NCBI GenBank assembly: GCA_964419275.1
Contig: CAYQOY010000004.1
Span: 3,114-55,634 of the forward strand
Direction of reading: 5' to 3'
DNA: 52,521 nucleotides
From: Candidatus Woesearchaeota archaeon
GTDB taxonomy: Archaea > Nanobdellota > Nanobdellia > Pacearchaeales > GW2011-AR1
Position numbers and translations under genes: made by a program. Positions 23,739-52,392 of the stretch are shown piece by piece (the stretch's first letter is position 1; each line of letters opens with the position of its first letter). Below the pieces are notes generated by a model. That model had not been told where the DNA came from. It did no database searches and was given only the letters and a program-made list of their open reading frames with translations.

Positions 23739-23820
23739 CGCCGACACCAGGAATCGAACCTGGATGCCCGAACGGGCCCTGGGCTCAAACCAGGTGGAAT
23801 ACCATTCTCCGCATGTCGGC
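23739..23820 (-). tRNA. tRNA-Ser(TGA), class II, with atypical 3-nt acceptor-to-D linker
   Basis: GCCGACA/TGTCGGC acceptor, anticodon arm CCTGG-TTTGAGC-CCAGG, variable arm GCCC-GTTC-GGGC, discriminator G. Confidence 0.9.
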
Positions 23821-23883
23821 TTATAATATCTAGAAAAAACGTATATTAAAAATGTTTGTTAAACCAGACCTTATGTCTTAAAA

Positions 23884-25713
23884 TTATTCAACTGTAACCG
23901 ATTTCGCGAGATTTCTTGGTTTGTCAATGTCTAATTTCTTAAGATTTGCGATGTGATAAGCTAAAAGTTGAAGTGGAATTGTGTTGATTATTGGAGAAAG
24001 CTCCTCGCTAGAGAAAGGAACCACAATAATTTCTTCTGCTAAACTCTTGATTTGTGCAAGTTCTTTTTCATCTAGATTATTTGTTATAACGATAATTTTC
24101 CCGTTTCTAGCTTTAACTTCCTGAATATTGCTAACAATCTTCGGGTAATCTTGGCTTTTTGGAGCTAAAACCACGACAGGAAGATTTTCGTCGATTAACG
24201 CAATCGGCCCGTGTTTCATCTCTGCGGCAGGATACCCTTCTGCATGGATGTAAGAAATTTCCTTGAGCTTCAGTGCGCCTTCTATTGCAACCGGGAAATT
24301 TATTCCTCTACCGAGATATAAAAAGTTTTTAGCTTCATGGAATTTATTTGCGATTTCAATAATCTTCTCGTTCAGTTGTAAAGTTTTTTTAATTAATTCT
24401 GGGAGATTTAGCGTTTCATCCAAAAATTCTGGAGAAATTTTCAATTCTTTTTTTTGTGCGAAGTATAATGCTAACAGCAAAAGAGCAGTTAATTGAGAAC
24501 TAAAAGCTTTTGTGCTTGCAACACCAATTTCCGGTCCTGCATGAAGATAAATCCCTGAATCCACCTCTCTAGCAATAGTCGAATCGACCACATTAATTAT
24601 TCCGAGTGTTTTTGCTCCTTGCGACTTCGCATGTTTAATTGCTGCAAGAGTGTCTGCTGTTTCTCCTGATTGAGAAATTGCAATTACCAAATCCTTATGA
24701 GAAATAATTGGCTCACGATATCTGAATTCAGAAGCGTAGTCTACTTCCACGGGAATTCTACAAAATCTTTCGAGATAGTTTTTTCCAACAAGAGCAGAGT
24801 GCCAGCTTGTTCCACACCCCACGATAACGATTCTCTTTAATTTTTTTATTTCTTGATCTTTTAGATTAAGAGAAATTTTTATTTGACTTTCTTTAATTCT
24901 CCCCCTAAGGGTATTCGAAATAGATTCTGGCTGCTCAAAAATTTCCTTTAATGTAAAATGCTCAAAACCCTGCTTTTCAATTTCACTGAGGTTCCATTGA
25001 ATCTGTCTTATTTCTGGATCAACTTTTTCCCCGTTTGGATTTTTAATGGAATAAGAATCTTTGGTGATTTTAGCAATTTCTTTGTCTTTAAGATAGATTA
25101 CTGTTTTTGTATGCTCGAGAATCGCGGAAGCATCTGAAACAACAAACATCTCTTCTTTTCCAAGGCCTATTAATATTGGAGAACCTCGTCGTGCAGCAAC
25201 AATACACGGTTCATCTTTATGCATAACCGCAATTCCATAAGTTCCTTCAACAATTTTCAGAGCTCTTGTTACTGCTTTTTCTAAATCTCCTTGGTAAAAT
25301 TTTTCTATTAAATGCACCAACACCTCTGTATCTGTTTCAGATTTGAAAACATGTCCTTCTTGAACTAGCATTTCTTTTAAAGAGAGATAATTCTCGATTA
25401 TTCCATTATGAACCAGCGCAATGGATTGTTTGCAATCAGTGTGGGGATGAGAATTTATTTTGTTTGGGGCTCCATGAGTTGCCCATCTGGTGTGTGCGAT
25501 TCCCTGAGAACTTTCTTGAAATTCAGATTTTTTAGATTCCAAATCTAAAACTCTGCCCGGTTGTTTTATTACTTGTAATACACTCTCTTCATCTTGTCTT
25601 CCCACCAAGGCAATTCCGGCGCTATCATACCCCCGATATTCCATCCTTTTTAACCCTTCAATTAAAATAAGACTTGCTTGTCTCTTCCCCAAATATCCAA
25701 TTATTCCACACAT
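23884..25713 (-). CDS. glmS: Glutamine-fructose-6-phosphate transaminase (isomerizing)
   Basis: Ntn start MCGIIG, EYRGYDSAG, HTRWATHG, SQSGETADT, C-terminal PRNLAKSVTVE. Confidence 0.98.
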   Translation of the reverse strand: MCGIIGYLGKRQASLILIEGLKRMEYRGYDSAGIALVGRQDEESVLQVIKQPGRVLDLESKKSEFQESSQGIAHTRWATHGAPNKINSHPHTDCKQSIALVHNGIIENYLSLKEMLVQEGHVFKSETDTEVLVHLIEKFYQGDLEKAVTRALKIVEGTYGIAVMHKDEPCIVAARRGSPILIGLGKEEMFVVSDASAILEHTKTVIYLKDKEIAKITKDSYSIKNPNGEKVDPEIRQIQWNLSEIEKQGFEHFTLKEIFEQPESISNTLRGRIKESQIKISLNLKDQEIKKLKRIVIVGCGTSWHSALVGKNYLERFCRIPVEVDYASEFRYREPIISHKDLVIAISQSGETADTLAAIKHAKSQGAKTLGIINVVDSTIAREVDSGIYLHAGPEIGVASTKAFSSQLTALLLLALYFAQKKELKISPEFLDETLNLPELIKKTLQLNEKIIEIANKFHEAKNFLYLGRGINFPVAIEGALKLKEISYIHAEGYPAAEMKHGPIALIDENLPVVVLAPKSQDYPKIVSNIQEVKARNGKIIVITNNLDEKELAQIKSLAEEIIVVPFSSEELSPIINTIPLQLLAYHIANLKKLDIDKPRNLAKSVTVE

Positions 25714-25797
25714 CAAAAACAAACACCAAGAAGAGATTATAAAAATTATGAAAGTCAATTCAAGAATAAAATTCGATAATGATTTCTAAAAATATAC

Positions 25798-50764: not shown

Positions 50765-51865
50765 ATGAAAGTATATCTTCAATATCCTTGGAAATTTCCA
50801 GATTCGCCTTATTATAAATATTTAATAGATAATCCCCCCGAAGGCGTTGAATTTCTTAATGCTGCAAAACAGCAAGGAGTTATTATCAACAAAAAGCGCT
50901 TTTTGCTTTCAAACTCCATCAAAAAAAGCATTCGAGGAGTTTTTCATGCCTTGGGAATACCCATTTTAAATGCTCATAGCACTAAGACTGAAGAAAAATT
51001 TGATTTGATACATTGTGCACATTGTCTAAGCCTTAACAATTCCCCCTGGGTTGCTGATTTCGAATCTTGGTGGCAATTCTGGATTTCTGGAGCACTTCAA
51101 AAAAGGAAGAGAGAACAAATTAAAAAAATAATTTTAAGTGAAAACTGCAAGAAGATTATGCCTTGGACAAATACAATCAAAAAAGATATTCTTGAAATCA
51201 TGCCCGAGGTTAAAAATAAACTGGAAGTTGTTTGCCCTGCGGTTCCTTTCCCTAGTTTCAGAACAACCAAACATAAGAAGATTACAATCTTATATGCGGC
51301 AAGATATTTTTGGGTTAAGGGAGGACTTATTGCTTTAGAAACCTTGAAAAGACTCAAAAAGAGACATGACATTGAAATTATTTTCATTTCTGATGTGCCT
51401 CAAAAAATAAAAGAAAAATATCCTGAAATCAAAATATTGGATTTAGTTCCTCAAAAAAAACTCATTGAATATTACAAATCTGCAGATATCTTTTTTTATC
51501 CTAGCCTTTTAGATACCTTTGGATTTTCATTGCTTGAGGCAATGTCTTATGGTTTGCCTGTTGTAGCATTAAATACTGGAGGAACGACTAACTGTAGAGA
51601 AATAATCGAAGATGGAAAAACTGGTTTTATCGTCGATGCTCCTTCTTACCAAGGGAATAAAATTTACAAGAAGCTTAAAAGAATTGGAAAAATTGAAAAG
51701 GAGATAATTGAACAGCTTGTAGGAAAAACAGGATTATTAATAAAAAACAAAAAATTAAGGAATAAAATGTCAAAAGAATGCCGAGAAGTGATCAGATCTG
51801 GAAAATTTTCTATTAAAGAAAGAAACAAAAAGTTGAAAAAGATTTATATGGAGGCCCTAAGATGA
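50765..51865 (+). CDS. GT4-family glycosyltransferase
   Basis: ADIFFYPSLLDTFGFSLLEAMSYGLPVV; DGKTG. Probable start ATG 50765. Confidence 0.92.
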   Translation: MKVYLQYPWKFPDSPYYKYLIDNPPEGVEFLNAAKQQGVIINKKRFLLSNSIKKSIRGVFHALGIPILNAHSTKTEEKFDLIHCAHCLSLNNSPWVADFESWWQFWISGALQKRKREQIKKIILSENCKKIMPWTNTIKKDILEIMPEVKNKLEVVCPAVPFPSFRTTKHKKITILYAARYFWVKGGLIALETLKRLKKRHDIEIIFISDVPQKIKEKYPEIKILDLVPQKKLIEYYKSADIFFYPSLLDTFGFSLLEAMSYGLPVVALNTGGTTNCREIIEDGKTGFIVDAPSYQGNKIYKKLKRIGKIEKEIIEQLVGKTGLLIKNKKLRNKMSKECREVIRSGKFSIKERNKKLKKIYMEALR

Positions 51866-52392
51866 GTTTCCAAGAAGTTTTTCCAAACATTTTAGCTAAA
51901 ACTTATTCTAATTGCAAGGTTTATGGTACATTAAGCAAAAACCCAGGAATATTCATTAGAAGCAAGATTTTCGAAGATAAATGCGTCTTTCTTCCCTTTT
52001 TAGATACAATTTTCTTAAACCAAGAAATTAAAAAGAAAGAACTGGAAGAGATGCTTGAAAAAGATAATAATCTCAAAATTGAAATTAGATTGAGCGAATC
52101 AGATTCTAACTTAAATAAGACGCGAAAACTTTTGAAGGAAAAAGGGTTCCAAGAAAATGTTAGCAAGGGACATATAATTTCTGAACTTACTTCTCAAGAA
52201 GATTTTTGGGATAGATTTCATAAACACACGAGAAATGACATCAGAAAAGCAGAAAAATCAAACCTTACTATCCTGAAGATAGATAATCTAACGGAATTAA
52301 AGAGATTTTATTTGTTATATTTAAGGCAAATGAAGGAATTTGGAACCCCCCAACATTCTTTCACTTTTTTTAAAAATTGTTTTAAGATGTAA
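51862..52392 (+). pseudogene. FemAB-like GNAT protein, apparently truncated at 176 aa
   Basis: FLPFLD; FWDRFHKHTRNDIRKAEK; RFYLLY...GTPQHSF.FF, then TAA. The second GNAT half expected for this family is missing. Confidence 0.55.

Follow-up and report, generated by a model that had tools for sequence, protein, structure and literature searches.

A two-nucleotide connector between the acceptor and D stems is among the most constant features of cytoplasmic tRNAs. Departures from the two nucleotides of canonical tRNAs have been described for tRNA-Pyl (one nucleotide or zero), mitochondrial tRNA-Ser(UCN) (one nucleotide) and the allo-tRNAs with an 8/4 or 9/3 architecture (PMC7609411). tRNA-Pyl and the mammalian mitochondrial tRNA-Ser(UCN) also have a 6-bp anticodon stem and a tiny D loop, and they are natural and translationally active. 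The allo-tRNAs (Mukai et al., 2017, in PMC7609411), with their long variable arm and G73, are bacterial, carry mostly non-serine anticodons and are accessory genes (PMC7609411). All these exceptions shorten the connector.

Archaea of the DPANN group also provide a described departure in the way that tRNAs obtain their 5' ends. In Nanoarchaeum equitans the promoter lies 26 or 27 nt upstream of the tRNA gene and transcription proceeds from +1, or from a purine at -1 in the case of the His, Tyr and iMet tRNAs; CCA is encoded and RNase P is absent (Randau et al., 2008, in PMC10100707).

Here we describe a tRNA-Ser(UGA) gene of a Pacearchaeota-type DPANN archaeon in which the connector is lengthened to three nucleotides. 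Like tRNA-Pyl and the mitochondrial tRNA-Ser(UCN) it departs from the two-nucleotide rule; unlike in these, the rest of the molecule is canonical. A literature search of incomplete coverage turned up no archaeal tRNA-Ser described as having a three-nucleotide connector, and the feature is apparently undescribed. A single candidate passage, on positions 9 and 10, proved to deal with the numbering of Box A in trypanosomatids and was discarded as irrelevant.

Gene Identity and Cloverleaf Architecture

The window, i.e., the whole stretch of 52,521 nt that was analysed, contains three tRNA genes according to ARAGORN, and one of them is a tRNA-Ser(tga) on the minus strand (Table 1). Rfam, run over the whole window with default filters at the gathering threshold, picked up the other two but not this one. 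When positions 23650-23950 were searched with laxer filters, the gene matched RF00005 over model positions 1-71 with 47.9 bits, the gathering cut-off being 29 bits. Class II variants of this kind can be dropped by the default Rfam filters.

Read from its 5' end, the tRNA consists of the acceptor strand GCCGACA, the connector, the D arm and A26, followed by the anticodon arm CCUGG-UUUGAGC-CCAGG, a 14-nt variable region, the T arm CCAGG-UUCGAUU-CCUGG, the acceptor strand UGUCGGC and the discriminator G73. The variable region holds a covarying 4-bp stem, which together with G73 and the UGA anticodon is what is expected of a class II tRNA-Ser; the locus is a real class II tRNA-Ser(UGA). CCA is not encoded at the 3' end, where G73 is directly followed by the run TTTTTATTTTTT, likely an archaeal terminator.

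Compared with canonical archaeal class II tRNA-Ser, the 7-bp acceptor stem, the 4-bp D stem with A14, G18, G19 and A21, the 5-bp anticodon and T stems, the long variable arm, G73, the UGA anticodon and the TTCGA T loop are the same. The differences are the connector, with three nucleotides where a canonical tRNA has exactly two (8 and 9), and the minimal 7-nt D loop. The preliminary description of this DNA, made from the letters alone, had already noticed the three bases T-G-C between the two stems, the GGAG/TTCC D stem with a canonical D loop and the pairing of A15 with U48, and it had named an Infernal alignment as a check for a base inserted after position 9. All of this holds: a single inserted "c" appears in the Infernal alignment between model positions 9 and 10, and the connector, the D loop and the A15-U48 combination are conserved in the orthologues.

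On the same strand, glmS (23884-25758) lies upstream of the tRNA gene, and a small GNAT gene on the plus strand (23352-23720) converges on it. No synteny of either neighbor with the orthologous tRNA genes was found, with the exception of the near-identical genome G007, which shares the GNAT gene. Since the neighboring genes are not conserved, the tRNA gene carries its own promoter wherever it is located.

Table 1. Features of the tRNA-Ser(UGA) locus, in positions of the window
Feature	Positions	Strand	Evidence or remark
tRNA-Ser(UGA) gene, class II, 82 nt	23739..23820	-	ARAGORN; RF00005; covariation in five helices
Three-base connector U8-G9-C between acceptor and D stems	23811..23813	-	Infernal insertion; MAFFT gap against two-nucleotide relatives
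D arm: GGAG (23807-23810) and UUCC (23796-23799), loop AAUGGUA (23800-23806)	23796..23810	-	
Anticodon UGA	23785..23787	-	Reads UCA, possibly other UCN codons
BRE/TATA promoter, best PWM fit ACAAACATTTTTAATA, start at -39	23844..23859	-	PWM from 225 mRNA promoters
Predicted short leader U(-3) A(-2) A(-1)	23821..23823	-	Position counts; promoter geometry
Oligo-T run TTTTTATTTTTT directly after G73	23727..23738	-	Sequence; putative terminator

Distribution Among Relatives

With 18 contigs totalling 523 kb and a G+C content of 33%, the assembly that holds the window (G000) is 82% complete. Among its 38 tRNAs, tRNA-Ser(UGA) alone fits a three-nucleotide connector better than a two-nucleotide one. 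For comparison, 61 genomes of relatives were searched by BLAST with the tRNA, and ARAGORN was run on the loci obtained. In addition, an exact-pattern scan over one genome for each of 185,579 species gave 58 matches. Approximately 45 of these are tRNA-Ser(UGA) genes in metagenome-assembled genomes (MAGs) labelled Pacearchaeota, Woesearchaeota or Nanoarchaeota. The others, about 13, lie in bacterial contigs without a tRNA and represent chance matches.

Three types of Ser(UGA) gene can be delineated. Type A, with the U-G-C connector, is represented by 30 distinct intron-free sequences from about 45 DPANN (Pacearchaeota-type) genomes. The connector is invariant in these 30 orthologues, but the pattern by which most of them were collected required UGC; the BLAST set, collected without such a bias, likewise contained only UGC in orthologues of this tRNA type. 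Type A occurs in G000 and six other genomes of one genus (G001, G003, G004, G006, G007, and G009) and in three further genera of the same family (G016, G019, and G024). Type B, with a UC connector and a GCAU...UUGC D stem, is found in other species of the source genus and family. Type C, in which UG is combined with either GGAC...CUCC or GCAC...CUGC, comes from a few genera within the family and from families of the order that are more distant. Which of the connector bases was inserted is ambiguous: set against type C, it is the C at 23811, following G9, that is extra, and set against type B it is the G at 23812, following U8.

Species within one genus may carry either of two Ser(UGA) genes (loci L011 and L014-L019 versus L001-L010). 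The D arm of the two-nucleotide gene (UC GCAU AAUGGUA UUGC) is common to the Ser(GGA) and Ser(GCU) tRNAs of the genus. Because of this shared D arm, the sequences suggest that the two-nucleotide Ser(UGA) in the genus arose through replacement by an anticodon-shifted paralogue.

Several orthologues (L010/L073, L044, L051, L060/L068, L071, L093, and L096) are interrupted, at the anticodon loop or close to it, by introns of 12-64 nt, and several of the intron-bearing genes were mislabelled as Ile, Leu or Stop by ARAGORN. This archaeal tRNA-Ser(UGA) with its archaeal promoter was also seen in two MAGs with bacterial labels, one described as "Patescibacteria group bacterium" (L059, JAHYJW010000002.1) and the other as "Bacillota bacterium" (L099, DATKUW010000029.1); these contigs are probably mis-binned or mislabelled.

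Register of the D Stem and Alternative Folds

A MAFFT alignment of 37 sequences (30 of type A and seven of type B or C) allowed the candidate D stems to be compared. With the three-base connector, 90.5% of the cells of the D helix are paired, and a compensatory change is seen at pair 11:24, where 20 sequences have G-C and the other 17 have C-G. At 13:22 there is either G·U or a mismatch (G·A, U·U or C·C); a mismatch or G·U pair at this position is common in class II tRNAs. The other helices covary normally, with changes in acceptor pairs 4-7, three pairs of the anticodon stem and four pairs of the variable stem.

It is extremely unlikely that the extra base is an artefact, arising either from an assembly or homopolymer error or from a canonical two-nucleotide connector followed by a mismatched D stem. 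ARAGORN indeed draws the latter: it keeps two bases in the connector by shifting the D stem, which then consists of a C·C mismatch, G-C, G·U and A-U. In this register only 47.3% of the cells are paired over the 37 sequences and no covariation is seen, and on these grounds, together with the change at 11:24, it was rejected. An assembly error can be excluded because the same connector is conserved in independent assemblies of about 45 species and because the extra C lies outside any homopolymer. The preliminary description had pointed to an assembly error and to orthologues with a two-base linker as findings that would speak against its reading; neither was encountered in the type A clade.

At -36.2 kcal/mol, the 7/5 cloverleaf (7-bp acceptor stem, 5-bp T stem) with the three-nucleotide connector is more stable than the two other cloverleaves considered, an 8/4 fold (-35.3) and the register of ARAGORN (-34.2). 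The unconstrained minimum lies at -36.3 kcal/mol, but this fold is not a cloverleaf and is uninformative.

The penalty of the 8/4 fold relative to 7/5 is only 0.9 kcal/mol. In this architecture, resembling that of the bacterial allo-tRNAs, U8 would pair with G65 to give an 8-bp acceptor helix and a 4-bp T stem, leaving C49 unpaired and G and C as the connector. The U8·G65 pair is able to form in all 37 aligned sequences, the 8-bp helix is used in the unconstrained minimum-energy fold, and SerRS is known to accept 8/4, 8/5 and 9/4 tRNAs (PMC7609411). However, U8 and G65 are invariant in all aligned sequences, the canonical types included, so the pair is equally possible in relatives with two-nucleotide connectors and carries no signal; for the same reason covariation does not discriminate between 7/5 and 8/4. 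As in ordinary tRNAs, both U8 and A14 are kept. Position 49 is always C or U (C-G in 35 sequences and U·G in two), i.e., the 49:65 pair is kept, and this restriction mildly favours 7/5 over 8/4. We therefore regard the 8/4 architecture as unlikely. Similarly to the allo-tRNAs, the tRNA has a serine-type identity, with a long variable arm and G73, and an 8/4 fold can be drawn for it; in contrast to them it is archaeal, has a serine anticodon and is the sole isoacceptor for its codon, and its 8/4 fold is without support from covariation.

Promoter Geometry and the Predicted 5' End

The promoters of mRNAs in G000 served as a reference for those of tRNAs. In an alignment of 399 long ORFs anchored on the first ATG, a sharp A-rich BRE is followed by TTTAWAAA at -29 to -22 from the ATG, and a PWM learned from these sites placed the start of the 16-nt motif at exactly -36 in 132 of the 225 strong cases. 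Because the motif start is fixed at this distance, most mRNAs of G000 are, as judged by promoter position, leaderless. Their BRE/TATA consensus is AGAAAGATTTATAAAC, and no Shine-Dalgarno signal was found in them.

The 38 regions upstream of the mature 5' ends of tRNAs behave differently. The motif starts at -38 in ten of them, at -39 in nine and at -36 in none; together, the cases at -38 and -39 make up 19 of the 26 tRNAs whose motif is strong (score above 6). When only the range from -40 to -34 is considered, all 19 strong tRNA cases are found at -38 or -39, as against -36 for mRNAs (Fisher p = 2e-15), and the promoter distances in the same range differ accordingly (Mann-Whitney p = 1e-12). 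The promoters of tRNAs are thus located 2-3 nt farther out than those of leaderless mRNAs are from the ATG.

For tRNA-Ser(UGA) itself the motif scores 5.8 bits at -39, 4.4 bits at -38 and 3.0 bits at -36, and the register is ambiguous because of a run of five T. The preliminary description had placed TTAATATA at -29 to -22 from G1, which is correct (23842-23849); the element overlaps the 3' part of the best-fit promoter. Its further statement that this is the spacing of the leaderless mRNAs does not stand, given the offset of the tRNA promoters from -36 and the best fit at -39 here. The promoters of the orthologues are cleaner and point in the same direction, with starts at -38 in 23, -37 in 12 and -39 in five cases and none at -36.

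The bases next to the gene were also considered. Among the 38 tRNA genes of G000, 33 have A at -2, and -3 and -1 are mostly pyrimidines, giving the context Y-A-Y before G1. In other species, the orthologues of tRNA-Ser(UGA) carry T at -3, followed at -2 by a purine. The conserved A is likely the transcription start of a 2-nt leader in the tRNA genes of G000. If the distance from TATA to the start is the same as in mRNAs, the position of the tRNA promoters 2-3 nt farther out predicts that the transcripts begin 1-3 nt before G1, mostly at A -2; starts predicted in this way carry an error of 1-2 nt, and the pyrimidine at -1 with a purine at +1 would also fit a start at G1. In tRNA-Tyr of G000, C1 is preceded by U at -1 and A at -2. 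It therefore cannot start at its mature end, and at least in the case of this tRNA 5' trimming is needed.

RNase P and the Comparison With Nanoarchaeum equitans

A full-length archaeal RNase P RNA is encoded in G000 (contig C8, 716-1030; RF00373, 145.4 bits), and it is conserved across the order, with matches in 55 of the 61 relatives, including all 14 high-quality genomes. The protein subunits Rpp29, Pop5 and Rpp21 were undetected with Pfam in G000 and in near-complete congeners (95-98%); a more distant family did yield Rpp21 and Pop5. In all five genomes tested, a short Rpp30-like ORF gave a weak match (in G000 at C2:83646-84041, E 0.035).

These data bear on the proposal of the preliminary description that the tRNA may be made with a mature 5' end, as in N. 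equitans, which lacks RNase P. Transcription would then start exactly at G1, the 5'-triphosphate would be kept and no RNase P step would follow. Several observations are compatible with such synthesis: the promoter distance is strictly fixed for almost all tRNA genes and conserved in the orthologues, a pyrimidine mostly occupies -1 and a purine +1, and most of the RNase P protein subunits are undetectable. G000 resembles N. equitans in belonging to DPANN, in its small genome and in the strict positioning of its promoters. Yet RNase P RNA is present, full length and above the cut-off, in the genome and its relatives, and hence the analogy with an RNase P-free organism fails. The larger promoter distance of the tRNA genes and their conserved A at -2 also disagree with a start at G1. 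Moreover, tRNA-Tyr lacks the purine at -1 from which N. equitans starts this tRNA (PMC10100707), and CCA is not encoded and a T-run trailer follows the gene here, whereas the transcripts of N. equitans are trailerless. The proposal is not supported, and we consider synthesis in the manner of N. equitans doubtful.

Role in Translation

ARAGORN found three serine tRNAs in the G000 assembly, with GCU, UGA and CGA anticodons, and the GCU and CGA tRNAs have two-base connectors. In the congeners G003 (98% complete) and G004 (95%), the other tRNA-Ser matches were GGA and GCU tRNAs with a UC connector. A second tRNA-Ser(TGA), which the preliminary description suggested looking for, was detected neither in G000, by ARAGORN on the whole assembly or by motif scans, nor among the secondary BLAST matches in congeners; apart from the gene described here, these searches together gave only GGA, GCU and CGA isoacceptors, all with two-nucleotide connectors. 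UCA makes up 20.5% of the serine codons in 311 long ORFs (14.3 per 1000 codons). Since this is the sole Ser(UGA) gene found, UCA is frequent, the gene has its own promoter and terminator and its stems evolve by compensatory changes, the tRNA must, by all sequence indications, be a working UCA decoder in translation.

Two further observations concern the serine tRNAs of this assembly. No tRNA-Ser(GGA) was found in G000, though UCU is the commonest serine codon (25.7 per 1000); the missing gene probably lies in the absent 18% of the genome. Outside the window, at C10:16031-16056, there is an orphan 3' tRNA fragment consisting of a T arm and an acceptor strand (CCAGGTTCGACTCCTGGTCTGGGCG). It follows tRNA-Ser(CGA) at a distance of 7 nt; a 5' half that would match it was not found in the G000 assembly, and the fragment is possibly what is left of an integration (att) site.

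The preliminary description also speculated that the atypical tRNA-Ser could serve non-ribosomal aminoacyl transfer by Fem-type enzymes, such as one that it placed at 51862. There is indeed a FemAB-family gene in the genome, at C1:4823-5344 (58 bits summed over pieces), and the ORF at 51862-52392 of the window is a weak FemAB match. The latter, however, encodes 176 aa and stays below the Pfam cut-off (E 0.014; 14.7 bits versus 24). A tRNA dedicated or adapted to such transfer would be expected as an extra isoacceptor beside a canonical one and together with FemAB. No further Ser(UGA) gene was found for the frequent UCA codon, and FemAB is not associated with the type A tRNA. At E <= 1e-5 it was not found in any of the 12 congeners or in G016, G019 and G024, the latter three having type A, and in all none of the nine other searched genomes with the type A tRNA gave a match; conversely, it is present in genomes with a two-nucleotide Ser(UGA) (G013, G020, and G046). 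A Fem-type use of this tRNA is thus highly improbable, and the FemAB-family gene of G000 is likely accessory, possibly horizontally acquired.

Proposed Model and Implications

We consider it likely, on the sequence evidence assembled above, that the gene encodes a functional, single-copy elongator tRNA-Ser(UGA) which adopts a 7/5 cloverleaf with a three-nucleotide connector. The insertion would have been fixed in a subclade of one family and kept since. In the folded molecule the extra base would be bulged or looped out beside the D stem, so that U8:A14 and G9 could keep their usual tertiary roles. The BRE/TATA promoter of the gene, lying at a set distance upstream, would drive transcription of the tRNA, with a primary transcript that starts 1-3 nt before G1, most likely at A -2, and ends in the T run after G73. 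RNase P would remove the short leader and CCA would be added afterwards, and the tRNA would then be charged by SerRS and decode UCA in normal translation. Three elements of this model are inferred from sequence: where transcription starts, where the mature 5' end lies and that the mature tRNA contains the extra base.

What sets this essential tRNA apart is a small structural variation specific to its lineage; otherwise it is ordinary. The extra base may be a tolerated, near-neutral insertion, since the Ser(UGA) of sister species and the other serine isoacceptors do without it. Taken jointly, two more far-reaching readings are possible rather than probable: that an essential tRNA-Ser has a core other than 7/5, and that fixed leaders of only 1-3 nt are trimmed by an RNase P with a retained RNA but mostly undetectable protein subunits. 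If the first were true, an essential tRNA-Ser for a sense codon, with an 8/4 fold or a three-nucleotide connector, would be tolerated by SerRS, EF1A and the ribosome, and it would provide a natural scaffold outside the canonical tRNA shape. If the second were true, Pacearchaeota would represent an evolutionary intermediate toward the RNase P-free state of N. equitans.

For annotation, the gene is a relevant case, as it was missed by the default Rfam filters and given a wrong D stem by ARAGORN. For DPANN archaea, the promoter geometry, with tRNAs offset by 2-3 nt relative to leaderless mRNAs, leads to a testable prediction on minimal RNase P substrates. The persistence of a lengthened connector in dozens of species shows that the core of a tRNA can accommodate more than textbook geometry, which may be of interest for the engineering of orthogonal tRNAs.
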